Assembly: GCF_030013205.1 (NCBI RefSeq)
Contig: NZ_CP122648.1
Strand: one strand, 5' to 3'
DNA: 64,000 bases
From: Escherichia coli
GTDB taxonomy: Bacteria; Pseudomonadota; Gammaproteobacteria; Enterobacterales; Enterobacteriaceae
Shown here: positions 4,088 through 19,824 of the stretch, piece by piece
Numbering within the stretch: the first letter of the stretch is position 1
Layout: every line of letters starts with the position of its first letter
Position numbers and translations under genes: made by a program
The notes under the pieces: generated by a model
The model's input: the letters and a program-made list of their open reading frames with translations, nothing else
Database searches by the model: none
Told to the model about the DNA's origin: nothing

Positions 4088-4221
4088 GAAAGGCTCTCCA
4101 GGTTACAGGCTTTTCCTGCCCGATGCTAAAACGGACAACAGTACCAGGTTACCCCAGTACTGTTGCTGTATGGATTAACAGGAGTGTAATCAAAATACGC
4201 CGATTTTGCACCTGTTCCGTG

Positions 4222-8114: not shown

Positions 8115-9836
8115 ATGCGCGCTTTGCTACCCTATCTGGCACTGTATAAACGTCATAAATGGATGTTAAGTCTTGGTATTGTGCTGGCAATTGTCACGCT
8201 GCTCGCCAGTATCGGTCTGTTGACACTTTCCGGCTGGTTCCTCTCGGCCTCAGCGGTAGCGGGGGTTGCCGGACTGTACAGCTTCAACTATATGCTACCC
8301 GCTGCGGGCGTGCGTGGTGCAGCAATCACCCGTACTGCCGGGCGCTATTTTGAACGTCTGGTAAGTCACGACGCGACTTTCCGCGTGTTGCAGCATCTGC
8401 GCATTTATACCTTCAGCAAATTGCTGCCCCTCTCCCCTGCAGGACTGGCGCGCTATCGTCAGGGCGAATTGCTCAACCGCGTGGTGGCGGATGTTGATAC
8501 GCTCGATCATCTTTACCTGCGCGTTATCTCGCCGCTGGTGGGCGCTTTTGTGGTGATTATGGTGGTGACAATCGGGTTAAGTTTCCTTGATTTCACCCTC
8601 GCCTTTACGCTGGGCGGCATTATGTTACTGACGCTTTTCCTGATGCCACCACTGTTTTATCGTGCGGGGAAAAGCACCGGGCAAAATCTGACTCATCTTC
8701 GCGGGCAGTATCGCCAACAACTGACGGCCTGGCTGCAAGGGCAAGCTGAGCTGACCATTTTTGGTGCCAGCGATCGTTATCGCACGCAGTTAGAGAATAC
8801 CGAAATTCAGTGGCTGGAAGCGCAACGTCGTCAATCTGAACTCACCGCATTATCGCAAGCGATAATGCTGCTCATTGGCGCGTTAGCGGTGATCCTGATG
8901 CTGTGGATGGCGTCTGGCGGCGTTGGCGGCAATGCTCAACCCGGCGCGTTAATTGCCCTGTTTGTCTTCTGCGCGTTAGCCGCGTTTGAAGCACTGGCAC
9001 CAGTAACGGGTGCATTTCAGCATCTGGGGCAAGTCATTGCCTCTGCCGTACGGATCACTGACTTAACGGTTCAAAAACCGGAAGTCACCTTCCCTGATAC
9101 CCAAACTCGTGTTGCCGATCGCGTTTCGCTGACGTTACGGGATGTTCAATTCACTTATCCGGAGCAATCCCAACAGGCACTTAAAGGGATTTCTCTTCAG
9201 GTAAACGCCGGGGAACATATAGCGATTCTCGGGCGAACCGGATGCGGCAAATCAACACTGTTACAACTGCTGACCCGCGCATGGGACCCGCAACAAGGCA
9301 AGATTTTGCTTAACGATAGCCCCATAGCCAGCCTGAATGAAGCGGCTCTACGACAGACCATCAGCGTTGTTCCTCAGCGAGTGCATCTGTTTAGCGCCAC
9401 GCTGCGTGATAATCTGTTACTCGCCTCACCTGGCAGTAGTGATGAGGCTCTGGCGGAGATCTTGCGTCGCGTTGGTCTGGAGAAGCTGCTCGAGGATGCA
9501 GGTCTCAACAGTTGGTTGGGTGAAGGCGGACGCCAGCTCTCCGGTGGTGAACTGCGCCGTCTGGCTATCGCCCGTGCGCTGTTACATGATGCGCCGCTGG
9601 TATTGCTGGATGAACCTACAGAAGGCTTAGATGCCACAACCGAAAGTCAGATCCTTGAATTGCTTGCAGAAATGATGCGTGAGAAAACGGTGTTAATGGT
9701 CACCCATCGACTTCGCGGACTCTCTCGTTTCCAACAAATAATAGTGATGGACAACGGGCAAATTATTGAGCAAGGTACTCACGCAGAACTGCTTGCCAGA
9801 CAGGGGCGTTATTACCAGTTCAAGCAGGGTTTGTAA
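8115..9836 (+). CDS. cydC: Glutathione/cysteine ABC exporter CydC
   Basis: 573 aa, TMD plus ABC ATPase (GRTGCGKST, LSGGELRR); start abuts cydD stop. Confidence 0.95.
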   Translation: MRALLPYLALYKRHKWMLSLGIVLAIVTLLASIGLLTLSGWFLSASAVAGVAGLYSFNYMLPAAGVRGAAITRTAGRYFERLVSHDATFRVLQHLRIYTFSKLLPLSPAGLARYRQGELLNRVVADVDTLDHLYLRVISPLVGAFVVIMVVTIGLSFLDFTLAFTLGGIMLLTLFLMPPLFYRAGKSTGQNLTHLRGQYRQQLTAWLQGQAELTIFGASDRYRTQLENTEIQWLEAQRRQSELTALSQAIMLLIGALAVILMLWMASGGVGGNAQPGALIALFVFCALAAFEALAPVTGAFQHLGQVIASAVRITDLTVQKPEVTFPDTQTRVADRVSLTLRDVQFTYPEQSQQALKGISLQVNAGEHIAILGRTGCGKSTLLQLLTRAWDPQQGKILLNDSPIASLNEAALRQTISVVPQRVHLFSATLRDNLLLASPGSSDEALAEILRRVGLEKLLEDAGLNSWLGEGGRQLSGGELRRLAIARALLHDAPLVLLDEPTEGLDATTESQILELLAEMMREKTVLMVTHRLRGLSRFQQIIVMDNGQIIEQGTHAELLARQGRYYQFKQGL

Positions 9837-11338: not shown

Positions 11339-11426
11339 GGTGAGGTGTCCGAGTGGCTGAAGGAGCACGCCTGGAAAGTGTGTATACGGCAACGTATCGG
11401 GGGTTCGAATCCCCCCCTCACCGCCA
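11339..11426 (+). tRNA. serW: tRNA-Ser (anticodon GGA)
   Basis: GGTGAGGTGTCCGAGTGGCTGAAGG...CCTGGAAAGTG...GGGTTCGAATCCCCCCCTCACCGCCA; long variable arm; anticodon loop CU-GGA-AA. Confidence 0.9.
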
Positions 11427-11588
11427 TATTCAAAGAAGAGCTCGTACGAAAGTAGGGGCTTTTTTTTCGCATATTGCACACACCGGGGGGATGAGAAGCC
11501 CCGACCGGGGTTCGACAACTGGCGCAGCCAGTTGGACAGACCACGAACACAGTGAGTGGGCTGCCCGCAGGGCGAGCGAAGCGAGTCA

Positions 11589-11611
11589 ATCCCCCCCTCA
11601 CCGCCATATTT
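11589..11611 (+). repeat. Direct repeat of the last ~23 nt of serW plus flanking TATT (aatccccccctcaccgccatatt)
   Basis: Near-identical copy of 11404-11430 located ~185 bp downstream; each copy is followed by a related A-rich/ctcgtacgaaagta segment. Confidence 0.8.
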
Positions 11612-14622: not shown

Positions 14623-14691
14623 TATCATTTAGTTAATTAGTCTTTATTTTTCATTATGTTGCAAATAACAACCCCGTCAAAAACAGTGATA

Positions 14692-14714
14692 TTAACTACA
14701 CCATTAACTACACC
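14692..14714. promoter_or_regulatory. Putative integrase arm-type sites (ttaactacaccattaactacacc) followed by cgaacaa repeats
   Basis: Tandem 11-mer direct repeat; a near-identical copy lies at 25069-25091 just upstream of the int start. Confidence 0.45.
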
Positions 14715-15303
14715 GCTTCACGAACAATATCGAACAACCGCGAACAAAGATCAACACGCTTTAATCATTATCATTTTCCGGCTATCCGTCATGAAGCTGG
14801 TGGATGATCTGCGTGGTGATTTCCACCATTCAGAGCAGGGGCGGTCATCATGACCATGCCATAACAAAAACCCCATATTCGTGGTTTTTCTGTGTCGGGG
14901 CTATTCTGCTGTTGCCGTGCTGGTGGATATTCTCCGGTATGCGGCTCCCCATATCGGCATCAGGCCCACCAGCGTGAAGCGTTTTTCATTTTTCGCGGGT
15001 ATAAAAAATCGATGGGGCGGGCAGTCCTGAAGACGTCAGGGTACGGAGATTTGACCCGCCCCTCCCTGTGCATGAGCACAATAAGTAACCGAAGGCGGAA
15101 TTCCGCCCTCGGTACTTACATATGAGAAACGATATTTCTTCCACCGATACCCTTTATTTGGGTATTGCGAGTAAGCCCCAAAATCTGGGTGTTACTCTTA
15201 CTACCCAAACTACGGGTAGTTTCCGTAGTTTCATGGTCGAGTTGCAAATCTGCAACTCACCCACCAGCCAACGCAATTTTGCGTTATCGGGAATATCAGC
15301 AAG

Positions 15304-15591
15304 TTACCGCCGCAGTCGTTCCGGCTTCTTCCACTGGTAAGTATTTTTCGCGCTCTCCCTCCGTTGTTGAGAACGGCGACGGTATGCCAGCAACTCAAGG
15401 ACTCTGGTTCGTATGTTGCGCATATCCACGCCGTTAAGCTCAATACCATCACGGCGCATCACCTCAGCAACAACACGCGCGTAATTTTCAGCGGTGACTG
15501 TATCCGGCTGCGCGGCCTGTTCGTCAGCCAACTGGCTGATTCCACCAGCACAGCGGATTAATCGCAGTATTTCAGATTCGGTCATTATCAT
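15304..15591 (-). CDS. Hypothetical protein (95 aa), island packaging module
   Basis: ORF overlaps the terS-like stop by 4 nt; no recognisable motif. Confidence 0.45.
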   Translation of the reverse strand: MIMTESEILRLIRCAGGISQLADEQAAQPDTVTAENYARVVAEVMRRDGIELNGVDMRNIRTRVLELLAYRRRSQQRRESAKNTYQWKKPERLRR

Positions 15592-16073
15592 GCCTGTTTT
15601 GCGACCTCATTCACTACGTCATTTTTTACCATCCGGCTGATAATCTGATTACACAAATCGTCAATAATTGACTGCACTCTGTTTACTGCCATCGGTTTAA
15701 GCCCGGCATCACGTGCCAGAATATTGGGGAGTTTTGCCAGTTCCTCGCTTACGATTTCCCCCCATATAGCCATCTCTTTTCGCACATCATCGGCGGGTAT
15801 GAGTTGCGCCGTTTCCTGTTCGAACTTGAGGCGTTCACGTTCGGACTGATACCAGGCCTTACGGTCTTGTGGCTCCATTTCTTCCAGTGATGCCGGAACG
15901 GGAAGATCAAGAAAACAGGTCAGAATGTCAGTCACCCGATAGAGTTTCAGCTTGTCATGCCCTCCGGCTGGCTGGATGTTTTTCAGCCTTGCCGCCGCAG
16001 TCTGACGACATATTCCCGCTATCGCCGCCAGTTGATTAATGTTCAGCATCAGATTTTTCAGTTCTCGATCCAT
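15588..16073 (-). CDS. Phage small terminase-like protein (Nu1-like HTH DNA-packaging protein)
   Basis: Start placed at MDRELKNLM (GGAGCGGGT SD); N-terminal HTH LNINQLAAIAGICRQTAAARL; layout resembles lambda Nu1. Confidence 0.55.
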   Translation of the reverse strand: MDRELKNLMLNINQLAAIAGICRQTAAARLKNIQPAGGHDKLKLYRVTDILTCFLDLPVPASLEEMEPQDRKAWYQSERERLKFEQETAQLIPADDVRKEMAIWGEIVSEELAKLPNILARDAGLKPMAVNRVQSIIDDLCNQIISRMVKNDVVNEVAKQA

Positions 16074-16226
16074 ACCCGCTCCAGAATGTTTTAAACATGC
16101 ATCTTGCGAACAACTTTCAGAAGAGGTCAAAAAATGCGCTATATGTTGAGCATAAAACAAGCAAAATTAACATGCCAAAAATAAAAATACTTAAAATTCA
16201 ATACAATATGAAGATGATGATGACGA

Positions 16227-16306
16227 ATGAAAATGCAAAAACTAGCCTTTTTCCGCGCCGCTCCCGCCCCGTGGCAGACCACTCCACCGGGAGGACCCGT
16301 AAAAAA
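16227..16306. repeat. 80 bp conserved element, copy 1 (~92% identical to 18761-18840)
   Basis: atgaaaatgcaaaaac..ccgggaggacccgtaaaaaag; lies between the capsid terminator and terS. Confidence 0.8.
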
Positions 16307-16324
16307 GGCGGCTGTCGCCGCCCT
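16299..16324 (-). terminator. Rho-independent terminator after the protease-capsid gene
   Basis: Minus strand ggcggcgacagccgcc followed by ttttttta. Confidence 0.6.
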
Positions 16325-16329
16325 TGTTG

Positions 16330-18243
16330 TCATGCTCCACTCGATTTCAGTAATCCGCGATAATCGAGGGCCGCGACACCTGCATCTATGCGCACTTTCC
16401 AGGCGACACCATCAACAGTAAAGCCCACCTGCTCCTCAAGATATGGCGTATCCATACCATCAAGATAAGCGACTTCTATTGTGTCCATCCCCTTAGCTGC
16501 GGCTACATACCATTCCTTGCTATTGGCCTTATCAAGACGTGGCTCAACAATTACTTCTGCCATATCTTTCACCACGTTAATGATGCCGGGGTTCTGATTG
16601 ATAGTGCTCTCATCACCAACCGGAAAGACTGATGACGATGACAGAATGGCGCGACGCGCGGCAGATTCCAGCGCGGCAGGGACCAGAACAAAAGCAGGGG
16701 TAATATTCAGTGAGTCGCCGTTAGCATCCTCCTGGAGGCGCATCAGCTTACGGGCTTCATCAAGCCCCACCATGTCCATATCCTTCGCAATAAGATTTTT
16801 ATGATCGGCATGGAATAACGCTTTACCATCCGTAAATTTGCCGTTGCTGGTTAACAGAAGATAAACCAGATTACCTACTGTTCTGGCGGCCGCACGCCCC
16901 ATCGCCATGGGGATTGTAGTTAACTGGGTCAGGTCATCGTTGATAATGGCCTGACGGGTAACAGAAAAAATATTACCGTATGTGGCCAGCGCAATAGGTA
17001 CACCTTTATCGCTGGTGGTGATGTATTTATATTCCGCACCTTCCGGTACTTTATCCAGCTTTGAAAAACCATTCAGACCAACGCGCTTTGCTTCATGAAA
17101 GTTTGAAAGCGATCCGGTACGCGTCCATTTCTGGAACGTTTCGCCGCTGTCCTGCCAGCCTTTCAGCACTGATTTTTCAGCACCACCAGCCAGAATATGA
17201 GAAAAATCGCTGCTGCTGTGTGTGAAAGCTGCATTAACGACCTGCGAGCGATTTAAAAAACTGCCAACACTGATACCACGATCAGTTAGTGATGCCTGGG
17301 CCATTTCAAAAAGGCTCATCATCGCGTAAGGATTTCCCCGCTCTGGGCGTTCATACCCAAGACGAGAATAAAGCCCCTGACGAATTGCATCGCCTGTTAT
17401 GTTCCCGTTACCGGCATAAATATGAGTCGGGATATTTTTATTGGATGGCGTGGACTCGCGCCCCAGCTCGTTCAACAACTTTTCACGGGCCATCTCCGGT
17501 GTACATGATGCATCCTCCAGGCACGCCATTTTGATCCCGTCGTAACGACTGCCGAACAGGCTAAACACTTCACTTATTCCGTTGATGCGCTTCTGTTCAT
17601 TACCAGCAATATTGGCTGCTCCCTGTGGCGGGGTAATCATTCCTTTAATGGTTTCAGGCATGTGTGAAAAATCTCCTGTGCGTTTCGATTCAATTCGCGC
17701 CATTGCTGTGACAGATGGCAACAATTCATCAGCAAAACCGTGCTTAAGGCATTCTTTCCCGTCCATCCAGGTTTCATCTTCCAGCATGGCGGTAATTTCC
17801 TGTGCTGATTTGCCCGTTTTTCTGGCATAAGCAGGGACTAACACGGTTTCCACCTTATCCAGCAAATCAGCATAATCACGCATATCACCAGCATTTCCGC
17901 CAGAGATACCCCACGGCTTATGTATCATCATCATGGCGTTTTCCGGCATCACAACACGATCGCCAGCCATTGCGACAACCGAAGCCATTGAAGCCGCAAC
18001 ACCATCGATATAAACCGTAATTTCTGCCGGATGATTCCGTAACAGGTTATAGATGGCGATGCCTTCAAACACGTCACCACCTGGCGAATGGATCCGCAGG
18101 TCGATATGTGAGACATCGCCCAGGGCTTTCAGGTCTTCCGCAAACTGCTTCGCGGTAATACCGAAGCCGCCAATTTCTTCATAGATGGATATTTCTGCCG
18201 CTCCGCGAACACCCAGCGCCTTAATGGTGTACCAGTGATTCAT
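16330..18243 (-). CDS. Fused prohead protease (ClpP-like) / major capsid protein
   Basis: 637 aa; N-terminal ~200 aa with ClpP-like serine-protease motif (IHSPGGDV); C-terminal ~430 aa of major-capsid size and character. Confidence 0.7.
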   Translation of the reverse strand: MNHWYTIKALGVRGAAEISIYEEIGGFGITAKQFAEDLKALGDVSHIDLRIHSPGGDVFEGIAIYNLLRNHPAEITVYIDGVAASMASVVAMAGDRVVMPENAMMMIHKPWGISGGNAGDMRDYADLLDKVETVLVPAYARKTGKSAQEITAMLEDETWMDGKECLKHGFADELLPSVTAMARIESKRTGDFSHMPETIKGMITPPQGAANIAGNEQKRINGISEVFSLFGSRYDGIKMACLEDASCTPEMAREKLLNELGRESTPSNKNIPTHIYAGNGNITGDAIRQGLYSRLGYERPERGNPYAMMSLFEMAQASLTDRGISVGSFLNRSQVVNAAFTHSSSDFSHILAGGAEKSVLKGWQDSGETFQKWTRTGSLSNFHEAKRVGLNGFSKLDKVPEGAEYKYITTSDKGVPIALATYGNIFSVTRQAIINDDLTQLTTIPMAMGRAAARTVGNLVYLLLTSNGKFTDGKALFHADHKNLIAKDMDMVGLDEARKLMRLQEDANGDSLNITPAFVLVPAALESAARRAILSSSSVFPVGDESTINQNPGIINVVKDMAEVIVEPRLDKANSKEWYVAAAKGMDTIEVAYLDGMDTPYLEEQVGFTVDGVAWKVRIDAGVAALDYRGLLKSSGA

Positions 18244-18449
18244 TGCTCCCCCCCAGATGCAAAACCATTCTTATCAAGCCACGCGTTAACCGCGTGTCTG
18301 ACAATCTGCGCCGCACCTGGTAATGGTTGGTCAGGATGATGATTTATGTGGTCGATCCTGTACTGCTTAAGGCGCATAACGGTCTGCGCATCCAGATGAA
18401 CGGAACCACCTTTTACCTCGCCTGTGTTCAGGTCGTTAATACAATTCAC
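18240..18449 (-). CDS. Hypothetical small protein (69 aa), translationally coupled to the capsid gene
   Basis: GTG start with AAGAGGAAG SD; stop overlaps the capsid ATG. Confidence 0.5.
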   Translation of the reverse strand: MNCINDLNTGEVKGGSVHLDAQTVMRLKQYRIDHINHHPDQPLPGAAQIVRHAVNAWLDKNGFASGGEQ

Positions 18450-18760: not shown

Positions 18761-18840
18761 ATGAAAATGCAAAAACCAGCCTTTTTCCGCGACGCTCCCG
18801 CCCCGTGGCAGGTCACTACACCGGGAGGACCCATAAAAAA
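18761..18840. repeat. 80 bp conserved element, copy 2
   Basis: ~92% identical to 16227-16306. Confidence 0.8.
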
Positions 18841-18858
18841 GCCGGATTGCTCCGGCTT
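18833..18858 (-). terminator. Rho-independent terminator after the SSB-like gene
   Basis: Minus strand gccggagcaatccggc followed by ttttttat. Confidence 0.6.
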
Positions 18859-18872
18859 CTGTTACTCGTTGC

Positions 18873-19295
18873 TTAAAACGGTATGTTATCCCCGTACGGA
18901 TCATCATTTCCCGCCTGTTGTTTTGCTCTGCTCAGTGCATCAGTAGCCTGCCCCTGTTGGCCTTTTTTGCCGCCCGGTCGCGCCGTTCTCGCACTGATTA
19001 CGCTGTCTGCGATAACCTGCCAGCCCTGCCGCGTCTCCCCGTTCTGTCCGGTCCACTGGCTCACCTGCATGTTACCCGCCACGCTCAGGAGTTCACCCTT
19101 GCGGTGCTTTGCCAGTGCTTCGGCCTGTCTGCCAAACGCCAGGACGGATAACCACATCGTCGCCGTTCCGTCATCTGCCTGGCTGCACGGAAGTGGGACC
19201 GCCATACTCGCCATCGTCATTTGTGTACCCTTGCTGGTGGTCTTTAACTGCGGGTCAGCCACCAGCCGCCCGTAAGCCGCTATCTGTGCTGTCAT
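18873..19295 (-). CDS. Single-stranded DNA-binding protein-like
   Basis: 140 aa; OB-fold-like N-terminus (GRLVADPQLK...), Gly/Gln-rich tail ending DDPYGDNIPF, resembling the SSB acidic tip DDDIPF. Confidence 0.65.
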   Translation of the reverse strand: MTAQIAAYGRLVADPQLKTTSKGTQMTMASMAVPLPCSQADDGTATMWLSVLAFGRQAEALAKHRKGELLSVAGNMQVSQWTGQNGETRQGWQVIADSVISARTARPGGKKGQQGQATDALSRAKQQAGNDDPYGDNIPF

Positions 19296-19537
19296 GCTGT
19301 CTGCTCTCCGGTTTTAACGTTGATGGTTGTCACCTGTTCCGCTTCGGCAATCTCCCGTTCTGTCAGCGTGGCAAAGTTTGCAGCTGCCGTTGTCATGAAT
19401 GAGCTAATCAGTTCGGGATGTGCTTTCGCATATCCTTCCCCGGCGTTGCGGTCGATGATTTTTATCGACACCCTTAACCAGTGTTCCGTCAAATCAAGGG
19501 CGTGCGATTGTGATTTTTTTGTGTGCTTCGCTGTCAT
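19292..19537 (-). CDS. Hypothetical protein (81 aa)
   Basis: ORF between the ori and the SSB-like gene; overlaps the ssb start by 4 nt. Confidence 0.45.
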   Translation of the reverse strand: MTAKHTKKSQSHALDLTEHWLRVSIKIIDRNAGEGYAKAHPELISSFMTTAAANFATLTEREIAEAEQVTTINVKTGEQTA

Positions 19538-19584: not shown

Positions 19585-19812
19585 TCACCTGTTCACCTTT
19601 TGATATTTTATCTTTTAATTCATAATGTTAAGGGGTGAACAGTTTCACAAAAACTATTCACCAACTGTTCACCACTGTTCACCCTTGAAGCTCAATAAAC
19701 AATCAAAAAGGTGAACAGTGAATAGTTTGGTGAACAGTTCATAAATAACTGTTCACCCTATAACATACTGATACAAAAGATATTTATGACAGGGTGAACA
19801 GTGGTGAACAGT
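19585..19812. promoter_or_regulatory. Putative replication origin: iteron cluster (at least 9 copies of GTGAACAG/CTGTTCAC) in AT-rich DNA
   Basis: Repeats at about 19587, 19634, 19665, 19676, 19710, 19729, 19750, 19794, 19803 in both orientations, immediately 3' of the primase gene. Confidence 0.65.
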
Positions 19813-19824
19813 TATTCCATAAGT

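Follow-up and report, generated by a model that had tools for sequence, protein, structure and literature searches.

A mosaic small terminase and its companion gene at the end of a PICI-type island of Escherichia coli

Results

Two adjoining genes on the minus strand

Two co-oriented minus-strand ORFs occupy one end of an island in the window, the 64,000-nt stretch of E. coli DNA that was analysed as a whole. The upstream ORF (15588..16073, minus strand, with its start ATG at 16073-16071) encodes a satellite small terminase (TerS) of the DUF1441/phrog_141 family. An earlier note on this DNA, made from the letters alone, had given the product as 160 aa; the gene is real, and its length is 161 aa, as in the RefSeq homologs. 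A reading from a TTG start at 16160 (190 aa) was dropped, all homologs beginning with MDRELK. The downstream ORF (15304..15591, minus strand), which is the last gene of the island, encodes a 95 aa homolog of c1504 of EcCICFT073, and its start ATG overlaps the TerS stop as ATGA, an overlap already described in the note. Most homologs begin two codons later, and the product would be 93 aa long if the ATG at 15585 were used. We consider both ORFs to be real genes and not chance readings because of their profile scores, their homologs and the dN/dS of the 95 aa gene (0.24-0.25 against three homologs). Of 5,426 complete E. coli genomes, about 190 (~3.5%) contain the contiguous pair, which is annotated there as 'DUF1441 family protein' followed by 'hypothetical protein'.

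No cognate TerL gene adjoins terS, the next gene being the 95 aa ORF. Beyond it, after about 190 nt, come a terminator-like hairpin with an 11 bp stem (15088..15113, minus strand) and, past this, the end of the island, in agreement with the earlier observation that no TerL follows. The whole window held no large terminase gene, and its other 54 kb showed no ORF of at least 180 aa in a phage-like gene cluster, as judged by gene clustering. A missing TerL next to terS is the expected state for a satellite.

The island is a PICI-type element of 10.4 kb

The island spans 10.4 kb between clpS and cspD and is bounded by 25 bp direct repeats. One copy, ATTAACTACACCATTAACTACACCG, forms the end on the clpS side (14691..14715), and the other, with one mismatch, lies beside int on the cspD side (25068..25092); the same att core also ends EcCICFT073 and L004. 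Encoded on the minus strand are a tyrosine integrase of 415 aa (23806..25053; ORF and family search), an AlpA-family regulator (23177..23386), a D5-type primase/helicase, pri-rep (19825..21657), and an SSB homolog of 140 aa (18873..19295), the last three recognised by profile match, together with a 637 aa fusion of a ClpP-like prohead protease and major capsid protein (16330..18243; profile and alignment). Immediately past the primase gene lie GGTGAACAGT iterons (19634..19822), which form the presumed ori at a position relative to pri that fits the description for Gram-negative PICIs. The island carries no TerL, portal, tail or lysis genes, and Rfam returned no RNA family in it. An ORF of 302 aa at 22258-23166 was rejected as spurious, being of low-complexity composition and overlapping a YlcI/YnfO-like gene on the other strand.

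Following published descriptions, Gram-negative PICIs were taken to be elements of about 10-15 kb with co-oriented int, alpA, pri-rep with ori, a capsid homolog and terS or rpp, and with no tail or lysis genes; by its gene content and att repeats, the island belongs to this class. A circular 'plasmid' record of 10,790 bp has this gene set too and would fit an excised episome. In the strain whose island copy matches best there is no second DUF1441 gene, and therefore no resident helper of that type.

The upstream gene encodes a small terminase of the DUF1441 family

The 161 aa protein matched Pfam PF07278 (DUF1441) with 123.4 bits against a cut-off of 35.1 (9e-36), the match spanning aa 9-147 of the profile's 147 positions, and phrog_141, 'terminase small subunit', at 8.7e-56. 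It is 65-70% identical to the annotated TerS of mEp460, phi458 and 606R10, and 45% identical to that of Gifsy-2. Ten phages were inspected, and in each the gene of the homolog lies straight before a gpA-type TerL gene and overlaps it. Judged by these relationships, the 161 aa protein is a true small terminase, belonging to the family that serves mEp460, Gifsy-2 and Stx phages. The note's proposal of a small terminase was thus borne out by profile search and TerS identity, and neither of the outcomes that it had named as speaking against it, a lack of similarity to small terminases or a regulator-type fold instead, was encountered.

The AF2 model (pLDDT 80.6) places a predicted winged HTH at aa 8-54, followed by three long helices; the domain consists of a strand (8-10), two helices (11-18 and 22-28), a hairpin (36-45) and a further helix (46-54), with pLDDT of about 80. 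Foldseek matched the model weakly (E 0.2-1) to MerR-type winged-HTH proteins and to the N-domain of lambda TerS, 6hn7_B, so that the N-terminal HTH anticipated from the letters reappears as a predicted winged HTH. The likeness to Nu1 held in part. Phrog_57, the Nu1 family, is distantly linked to the protein (4.7e-7, aa 64-143 only), which resembles lambda gpNu1 in its predicted MerR-like winged-HTH N-domain, its helical C-part and the place of its gene beside cosB; however, it falls outside the Nu1 family proper and in DUF1441 instead, with no match to Pfam Phage_Nu1 at E up to 0.1. A phmmer search against PDB gave no meaningful match, and 1j9i, 6hn7_B and 6hlk were absent at E up to 1. NCBIfam contained no match for either the 161 aa or the 95 aa protein.

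cos sites

TerS is encoded directly downstream of a lambda-like cos, the same layout as that of cos and terS in phages. A cosN-like 12-mer, GGGCGGGAGCGG (16258..16269, minus strand), aligns column for column with GGGCGGCGACCT of EcCICFT073 cos1, which was experimentally validated there, and the alignment also places a cosQ-like element, GGGTCCTCCCGG (16287..16298, minus strand), upstream of cosN. Together the two elements span 16258-16298, and about 185 nt separate them from the terS ATG. Immediately upstream of cosQ, at the end of the capsid gene, is a GC-rich hairpin with a T-run (16307..16322, minus strand). The spacer from cosN to the terS start (16074..16257, minus strand) is the cosB equivalent and the presumed TerS binding region; a repeat search found no R-type repeats in it, only one imperfect palindrome. 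A stretch of about 90 nt upstream of terS matches the cos region of phage 606R10 almost exactly. A second copy, cos2 (18761..18854, minus strand), is 88% identical to cos1 over cosQ and cosN, and the sequence downstream of it is unrelated to that of cos1. EcCICFT073 likewise has two cos sites, of which cos1 alone is essential there.

The mosaic structure of terS

Comparison with a complete lambdoid prophage (P0169/L014; gene order lysis genes, TerS, TerL, portal, protease/MCP) and with a sister island at the same chromosomal site, clpS/cspD (L017), revealed that terS is composed of two parts of different relationship. TerS codons 1-72, the DNA-binding half (15858..16073, minus strand), share 99% of their amino acids with the prophage and 53% with the sister island. 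For codons 98-161 (15588..15782, minus strand) the corresponding values are 50% and 100%, and the 95 aa gene, too, is 100% identical to its copy in the sister island. Upstream, the phage likeness continues through the cosB spacer and cosN, which together with codons 1-72 are 95-100% identical to the prophage, the spacer being only 30-65% identical to that of the sister island. The hairpin at 16307..16322 is the left boundary of the swapped segment. In the sister island, the stretch delimited by the same two breakpoints matches an Stx2a-converting phage. The mosaic was seen by protein alignment, DNA alignment and sliding identity. The capsid fusion is 56% identical to that of the prophage, with a 29 aa linker deletion.

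In these comparisons, the cosN-proximal DNA, cosB and TerS codons 1-72 form an exchangeable recognition cassette, and the TerS C-terminal half with the 95 aa gene forms the constant, satellite-only part. The note had spoken of the island's own packaging site. This description does not hold, since a complete lambdoid prophage has cosQ, cosN, cosB and a TerS DNA-binding half of 95-100% identity to those of the island; within the predicted packaging module, the island-specific portion is the TerS C-terminal half. This half reached at most 58% identity to any phage among 50,697 phage records. Its tail is not acidic, and D116 and E119, nearly invariant in phage TerS, are replaced in it, as is R140, which is phage-conserved too, in some copies. 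The protein is nevertheless co-linear with phage TerS within 2-3 residues (161 against 163-164 aa). Phage TerS proteins (mEp460, phi458, 606R10, Gifsy-2, Stx2a) thus share with it family, length, the slot after cos and up to 99% of the N-half, but their genes are followed by TerL and they end in an acidic C-tail. We regard the mosaic structure as the main new detail, a PICI with TerS itself being a known kind of element.

The 95 aa protein

The 95 aa protein matched phrog_1561 at 1.1e-52 and has 934 database homologs. In length, in its phrog_1561 match, in the invariant and strongly basic C-terminal WKKPERLRR of its family, and in its position as the last gene after a TerS- or Rpp-like gene, it is a c1504-like terminal protein. 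Alignment with c1504, which follows rppA in EcCICFT073, gives 74% identity, the value for L005:3374-3655. Homologs of 74-90% identity are encoded after RppA in EcCICFT073 and, in other islands, after Nu1-like TerS genes, and with identities down to 47% a homolog comes after TerS- or Rpp-like genes in five island types. A c1504-like gene occurs in roughly one fifth of E. coli genomes, always after a packaging-specificity gene. The note had suggested that the 95 aa protein could be a specificity factor; because its homologs follow three kinds of TerS-like gene, including RppA and Nu1-like TerS, it is not tied to any single type of TerS. At 90% identity, the copy beside a Nu1-like TerS resembles it more than some copies beside TerS of the same type do.

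An exhaustive search with the 95 aa protein yielded 36 representative clusters only, mostly fragments or chimeric gene calls. Two giant repeat proteins were rejected as relatives, as they match only through an ankyrin-like segment, and so were DARPins matched weakly by phmmer against PDB, which share one ankyrin-like helix-loop motif and not homology. A PADLOC match to BrxA (E 0.008, 14 bits) was judged to be chance. BLASTP and hhalign found nothing to suggest an origin from the TerL N-terminus, a gpW-like 70 aa protein or TerS. When helper and prophage loci were translated in six frames, WKKPERLRR was absent outside homologs of the 95 aa protein. The AF2 model comprises three helices (pLDDT 75), and Foldseek against PDB returned nothing below E 1.6 for it.

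Discussion

A probable packaging module for use with a helper phage

We put at about 70% the probability that the two genes form the packaging module of a Gram-negative PICI and that this island is a parasite of lambda-like cos phages of the mEp460, Gifsy-2 or Stx-phage type. A helper phage would induce the island, leading to its excision and its replication into concatemers. The winged-HTH half of the island TerS would then bind the spacer that separates cosN from the terS start codon, and the C-terminal half would recruit the gpA-type TerL of the helper, which would nick cosN and pump island DNA into procapsids. Because the recognition unit is an exchangeable cassette nearly identical to that of a phage, the island appears to copy a phage's packaging address instead of inventing one. 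When the helper has a different cosB and DNA-binding domain, its terminase would be diverted to the island; when it has the same cassette, the address would merely be shared. A helper of the latter kind leaves the satellite TerS without selectivity, and therefore the benefit must come from elsewhere. The satellite-specific C-half may be adapted to TerL capture, or to keeping the assemblies of island and helper TerS apart.

For the 95 aa protein, probably co-expressed with TerS, our guess is that it is most likely an accessory acting on something that all these helpers have in common, the gpA-type TerL or the gpB-type portal, or on the complex of cos and TerS, and we would also guess that it is not the specificity determinant. 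As a tentative extension, which we hold possible, the TerS C-half and the 93-95 aa protein may together be a terminase-capture device, the satellite-only unit, into which cosB and the TerS DNA-binding half are plugged as a cassette that PICIs and lambdoid phages, Stx2a-converting ones included, would have exchanged repeatedly at two fixed sites of recombination, cosN and the conserved central TerS helix.

The closest known system is the cos1-rppA-c1504 module of the E. coli PICI EcCICFT073 (Fillol-Salom 2018, 2019). Both elements share the plan of int, alpA, pri/ori, ssb, a capsid homolog, cos, a winged-HTH packaging protein and a last gene of 93 aa in EcCICFT073. In each, cos is present twice and a terminator hairpin directly precedes cosQ; the att core sequence is shared as well. 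In contrast, the packaging protein of our island is a full-length TerS of DUF1441 type and not an Rpp, its capsid gene is a protease/MCP fusion whereas EcCICFT073 has gpE and gpD homologs, and its cosB matches a phage whereas that of EcCICFT073 is unlike its helpers'. A satellite TerS in an element without TerL recalls the TerS_S of pac SaPIs such as SaPI1 and SaPIbov1, a TerS homolog that pairs with helper TerL; those SaPIs package by headful from a SaPI-specific pac site, whereas the island is of cos type with a recognition half copied from phages. A satellite copy of the helper packaging site is also found in the cos SaPI SaPIbov5, which carries a capsid-protein homolog too, and, as mimicry of a pac site, in PLE, but SaPIbov5 lacks its own TerS and PLE uses the unrelated small proteins Gpi and GpsA/B.

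Alternative explanations

One alternative is that the island TerS poisons helper packaging as RppA and RppC do, co-assembling with helper TerS through its central helix and DNA-binding domain, blocking helper packaging and borrowing the helper C-terminus for contact with TerL. Since the central helix (aa 67-95) is identical in the island and phage proteins, a heterodimer of the two is plausible. The acidic tail and the acidic residues lost from the island C-half could have been the TerL contact, and with them, D116 and E119 among them, that half may have lost TerL binding; in sister islands, moreover, Rpp proteins hold the same slot, between cos and a c1504 homolog. Rpp proteins are, however, shorter than TerS (139-154 aa) and are devoid of the C-terminal TerL-binding part, whereas the island TerS is not truncated and retains the conserved RVQSIIDDL helix. 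It showed no homology to RppA, RppB or RppC by phmmer against PDB, where an RppA control matched 6hlk at 5e-31. Furthermore, a heteromer with the TerS of the phage whose DNA-binding domain it shares would yield no new specificity. We therefore consider Rpp-like action unlikely.

Alternatively, the 95 aa protein could interfere with the helper in the manner of Ppi or Gpi, binding the helper TerS tail or TerL, an action that the island TerS would bypass. The overlap of its start with the terS stop and its synteny across the five island types are in keeping with such a role, as is its basic, invariant C-terminus, in contrast to the acidic tail that phage TerS has and island TerS lacks; SaPI TerS with Ppi, and PLE Gpi with GpsA/B, are precedents. 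The experiments on the nearest tested relative speak against it. In EcCICFT073, genes of the region after ori were cloned, and of these c1503 (rppA) alone blocked lambda and cut its plaques; c1504, not named in the main text of that paper, is assumed to have been one of them. RppA by itself sufficed to redirect the packaging of cos1 plasmids. A role of c1504 by itself in interference or specificity, the two functions that the note had considered for the 95 aa protein, is thus not supported. The 95 aa sequence also does not track the TerS type, as the 90% identical copy beside a Nu1-like TerS illustrates, and the searches gave no homology to TerL, gpW-like protein or TerS, no fold match and only a chance-level PADLOC match. 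We find this role doubtful for the island protein.

It is far less probable that TerS and the capsid genes are functionless leftovers of a decayed lambdoid prophage. Their close phage homologs and the loss of TerL, portal and tail genes would suit such an origin, but the same compact architecture with intact ORFs recurs in the ~190 complete genomes, the 95 aa gene, as the island-specific part of the module, is under purifying selection, and int, alpA, a primase with iterons and att repeats all belong to the island itself. The order of capsid, cos and terS also departs from the phage order of cos, terS, terL, portal and capsid, the circular episomal record exists, and the organisation is that of the experimentally mobile EcCICFT073. 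Finally, although the best Foldseek matches are MerR-family regulators and the Pfam family is named merely 'DUF1441', it is hardly credible that the 161 aa protein regulates transcription in the manner of MerR instead of being a terminase subunit, as the DNA-binding domains of lambda Nu1 and RppC share the MerR-like fold, in each of the ten phages an ortholog takes the place of TerS, after cos and before TerL, and the phrog_141 and phrog_57 terminase profiles match strongly.

Implications

PICIs carry virulence and defence genes between enterobacteria and suppress the phages that they exploit. To our knowledge, Rpp is the sole packaging mechanism of E. coli PICIs worked out so far. The island described here would represent a second and fairly common packaging solution, a full-length satellite TerS with a DNA-recognition half copied from phages. 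If its C-terminal half captures the helper terminase, it would define the TerS-TerL interface in the large DUF1441 family, and the propagation of Stx phages could be modulated by resident PICIs. If the recognition half is indeed a plug-in cassette, packaging specificity would be a traded commodity in the arms race between satellites and helpers, in which satellites copy the address of a helper or phages escape by copying that of a satellite, and these PICIs would be implicated as parasites of Stx phages.

Genes at the end of the island

The terS ORF lies on the minus strand at 15588..16073 (ATG at 16073, product starting MDRELKNL) and encodes 161 aa rather than the 160 aa given in an earlier note. 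As that note had described, a 95 aa ORF (15304..15591, minus strand) overlaps its stop; TGA of the first and ATG of the second form an ATGA junction, and most homologs of the 95 aa protein use a start two codons on, at 15585, giving 93 aa. The profile search against terminase small-subunit families that had been proposed matched the 161 aa protein to Pfam DUF1441 with 123 bits (cut-off 35) and to PHROG 141, 'terminase small subunit', at 9e-56. The 95 aa protein matched PHROG 1561 (unknown function) at 1e-52, had 934 homologs in the database, and its gene showed a dN/dS of 0.24-0.25 against three homologs. RefSeq labels the pair 'DUF1441 family protein' and 'hypothetical protein', and it is contiguous in ~190 of 5,426 complete E. 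coli genomes. Based on the profile scores, homologs, dN/dS and annotation, both ORFs are real genes. The absence of a large terminase (TerL) gene 3' of the pair was also borne out, as only a terminator-like hairpin (15113-15088) follows the 95 aa gene before the island ends. Judged by ORF layout alone, the remainder of the 64 kb window resembles ordinary chromosome and holds no other phage-like gene cluster.

The island itself is a 10.4 kb insert between clpS and cspD, bracketed by a 25 bp direct repeat, ATTAACTACACCATT(A/G)ACTACACCG, at 14691-14715 and 25068-25092. Its minus-strand genes encode a tyrosine integrase (23806-25053), AlpA (23177-23386), a DUF4222 protein (21639-21938), a D5-type primase (19825-21657, next to GGTGAACAGT iterons at 19634-19822), an 81 aa protein (19292-19537), SSB (18873-19295), a 69 aa protein (18240-18449) and a ClpP-protease/major-capsid fusion (16330-18243). 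This gene set is the published core of Gram-negative phage-inducible chromosomal islands (PICIs), namely int, alpA, pri-rep/ori, a capsid homolog and terS, without tail or lysis genes. The likely exception to the minus-strand order, and the island's only plus-strand gene, is a 117 aa ORF (22478-22831), which lies inside a spurious-looking 302 aa minus-strand ORF (22258-23166) at the position of a YlcI/YnfO-family gene annotated in sister islands.

The same genes in the same order are present in NZ_CP148328.1 (L022), a circular record of 10,790 bp deposited as an E. coli 'plasmid', whose packaging module is 97.5% identical to that of the window; this is the form in which an assembly would show an island that had excised and was replicating. 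In L022, as in some copies on chromosomes (H13, H14), the capsid gene and cos/terS are separated by an additional 'tail assembly protein' gene. The att core CGGTGTAGTTAATGGTGTAGTYAAT ends both the clpS/cspD island and islands at phoQ (L005 ~4100-4130; L004 ~8470-8500) of the type of EcCICFT073, an E. coli PICI, and thus related integrases seem to use near-identical att cores at different chromosomal loci. The 95 aa gene is separated from the island end by ~590 nt of non-coding DNA (14716-15303), in which no Rfam family was found. The ~45 nt next to the stop codon are conserved (alignment A10) between islands that occupy different sites, and a ~100 nt block in the middle, containing hairpins, also occurs in L003 (NZ_CP138217.1 1527843-1546124). 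L003 is a relative of the island that has a Nu1-like small terminase (TerS) and a 93 aa gene; it has integrated into a lambda-like prophage, within the portal gene, and is a helper-embedded PICI of the type in PMC10111431. Outside the island, between infA and clpA, a tRNA (11339-11423) is followed by an RtT RNA element (11471-11606).

TerS family and cos sites

Over aa 1-149, the 161 aa protein was 65-70% identical by tblastn to annotated TerS of the lambdoid cos phages mEp460, phi458, PhiR55_1 and 606R10, with lower identity to mEp043/mEp213 (~52%), Stx2a-converting phages (47%) and Gifsy-2 (45%). The homolog is located directly 5' of a gpA-type TerL, mostly overlapping it, in every phage opened (606R10, mEp460, Gifsy-2, Cr-LKS3, Aliivibrio, Aeromonas and Vibrio phages, Hafnia yong2, an Stx2a phage and mEp043), and therefore DUF1441 is the TerS family of the mEp460/Gifsy-2/Stx2a-type phage group. 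On one E. coli contig, a 234 aa fusion (P0160) joins a ClpP-protease N-terminus to a DUF1441 TerS (90% identity), apparently through a deletion that took out the capsid part and cos.

AlphaFold2, run with an alignment of 11 sequences, gave a model with mean pLDDT 80.6 in which aa 8-54 form a strand, a pair of helices, a beta-hairpin wing and one more helix; three long helices come after them. The model's Foldseek matches in the PDB were weak (E-values 0.2-1) and were nearly all MerR-type winged-HTH proteins (CarH, CbpM, BrlR, MtaN, BldC, RacA), the fold class of Nu1 and RppC (Fillol-Salom et al.); 6hn7_B, the lambda TerS N-domain of the RppC-TerS complex, was among them. Since aa 64-143 also matched the Nu1 PHROG (phrog_57) at 4.7e-7, 'Nu1-like layout' is a fair description. 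The earlier term 'Nu1-like small terminase' holds for this layout and not for family membership; the protein matched neither Nu1 in the Pfam search nor 1j9i by phmmer, and its assignment to the Nu1 family proper was rejected.

The capsid gene and terS are 260 nt apart. Read along the coding strand, this gap contains a GC hairpin and T-run (16322-16307, capsid terminator), a cosQ-like GGGTCCTCCCGG (16298-16287), a cosN-like ACG-GGGCGGGAGCGG-CGCGG (12-mer at 16269-16258) and a 185 nt spacer from cosN to the terS ATG. About 90 nt of it are nearly identical to DNA 5' of terS in phage 606R10. The island cos aligns column for column with cos1 of EcCICFT073, which is located 5' of rppA, carries the lambda cosN GGGCGGCGACCT, and has a function demonstrated by experiment. 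A second copy, cos2 (18761-18854), lies 2.5 kb away with the capsid gene between the two; it is 88% identical to the first (16227-16320) over cosQ/cosN, with unrelated flanks and downstream DNA. EcCICFT073 likewise has two cos sites, of which cos1 alone is required.

Mosaic structure of terS

Our main result is that terS is a mosaic gene. Sorted by C-terminus in a protein alignment, database homologs of TerS fell into a phage type, ending in ...AKAVVQVLETLPDILERDCGLQPAAVSRVQSIIDDLRDQIALRVTEAGADDEEELQQEE with an acidic tail, and an island type, ending in ...GEIVSEELAKLPNILARDAGLKPMAVNRVQSIIDDLCNQIISRMVKNDVVNEVAKQA, and at least three N-terminal (DNA-binding) types were each found with either. 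P0169 combines the N-half of the window's TerS with a phage-type C-half and is encoded in complete lambdoid prophages (lysis genes, TerS, TerL(gpA), W-like, portal, 675 aa protease/MCP fusion), while P0170 combines an Stx-phage N-half with an island-type C-half and is encoded by a sister island that also occupies the clpS site, with a 93 aa gene next. In sliding windows, the DNA from ~16290 down to ~15860 (cosN, spacer, codons 1-72) was 95-100% identical to the P0169 prophage locus (L014) and 30-65% to the sister-island locus (L017). From ~15850 to 15262, a stretch that covers codons ~75-161 and the 95 aa gene and runs past it, identity was 100% to L017 and at most 70% to L014, which then became unrelated; 5' of cosQ, the window is island-like again. 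Protein identities of the N-half and C-half were 99% and 50% for the prophage, and 53% and 100% for the sister island. The sister island is 90-100% identical to an Stx2a-converting phage from cosN to ~codon 75, and island-type on either side.

Since the two breakpoints fall on the two stretches conserved in everything, cosQ/cosN and the central TerS helix RKAWYQSERERLKFEQETAQLIPA, we infer homologous recombination there as the obvious exchange mechanism. No record among 50,697 phage genomes exceeded 58% identity to the island-type C-half; this half of TerS is the satellite-specific part. Different copies of the same island backbone carry the packaging addresses of different phages. The island's protease/capsid fusion and its counterpart in the cassette-sharing prophage (L014:10256-12283) share only 56% identity, and the island fusion is 29 aa shorter in the linker joining the protease and capsid parts, a deletion that could bear on capsid size given that 10.4 kb is about a quarter of a 44 kb helper genome.

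The 95 aa protein

In EcCICFT073, the last gene, located 3' of rppA (c1503), should correspond to c1504; its 93 aa product shares 74% identity with the 95 aa protein. Identity is 76-90% for the last-gene products of two other islands, in which a full-length Nu1-like TerS (180 aa, phrog_57 5e-51) precedes them. More distant homologs (47-70% identity) lie directly 3' of a gene whose N-terminus matches the Nu1 DNA-binding profile and are likewise the last island gene, including one in a different island backbone. On this evidence, the order of TerS/Rpp-like gene, 95 aa-type gene and island end is conserved. The sequence of the 95 aa protein does not track TerS type, which argues against a type-specific partner or the specificity factor suggested earlier.

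The family is found in Enterobacteriaceae only, with 36 clusters at 50% identity, and some copy of the gene is present in ~1,170 of the 5,426 genomes. Its AlphaFold2 model (pLDDT 75) has helices at 5-15, 34-47 and 54-84 and gave no PDB fold match; the basic tail ends in an invariant WKKPERLRR, and no homology to TerL, a gpW-like protein or TerS was found. The sole match in the phage database was Klebsiella phage P12620-1 (PQ569648.1 92675-92836, 48% identity over aa 40-95); the matching part of this 106 kb record is unannotated and may be a satellite or chimeric region within it.

Our guess, held with low confidence, is a packaging-module accessory acting on gpA-type TerL, gpB-type portal or the cos-TerS complex, where the TerL and portal targets would be common to all these helpers. 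The main rival is an inhibitor like Ppi of SaPIs or Gpi of PLE; against interference, published work found c1503 to be the only lambda inhibitor among the cloned post-ori genes of EcCICFT073, assuming that c1504, unnamed in the paper's main text, was included. In that island, RppA alone was enough to redirect packaging of a cos1 plasmid.

Proposed packaging model

The island must borrow a TerL, and its pairing of TerS with cos makes the broad idea of redirection right; the address, which had been thought the island's own, is probably a copy of a phage's. In lambda Nu1, the C-terminal half is the seat of self-assembly and TerL binding, and by analogy the island C-half may serve both. We give a probability of roughly 70% to the outline in which island TerS acts on the spacer, helper TerL is recruited, cosN is cut and island concatemers are packaged. 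The winged HTH would contact the spacer and the C-half would bring in the helper's gpA-type TerL, which would cleave cosN and package the concatemers. A helper with a different cassette would have its terminase diverted, as in SaPIs; the address of one with the same cassette would be shared by the island, in the manner of SaPIbov5 or the pac mimicry of PLE. Since neither the acidic tail nor D116 and E119, acidic residues nearly invariant in phages, are retained in the island C-half, we keep in view an unlikely alternative, in which island TerS, like the redirecting phage packaging (Rpp) proteins, co-assembles with helper TerS, whose tail brings in TerL; however, island TerS has no similarity to Rpp, is full length, and has a DNA-binding half identical to a phage's.

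The closest known system to this island end is the cos1-rppA-c1504 end of EcCICFT073, and the closest in function is the SaPI TerS strategy. TerS homologs of Gram-negative PICIs have already been noted in the literature and terS is a core marker in SatelliteFinder, so that a TerS-carrying Gram-negative PICI is a known kind of element. In the searchable literature we found no phage-identical cos/DNA-binding cassette, satellite-only TerS C-half or conserved linkage with a c1504-like gene. These three features merit specialist attention, above all the link to the cassette of Stx2a phages.
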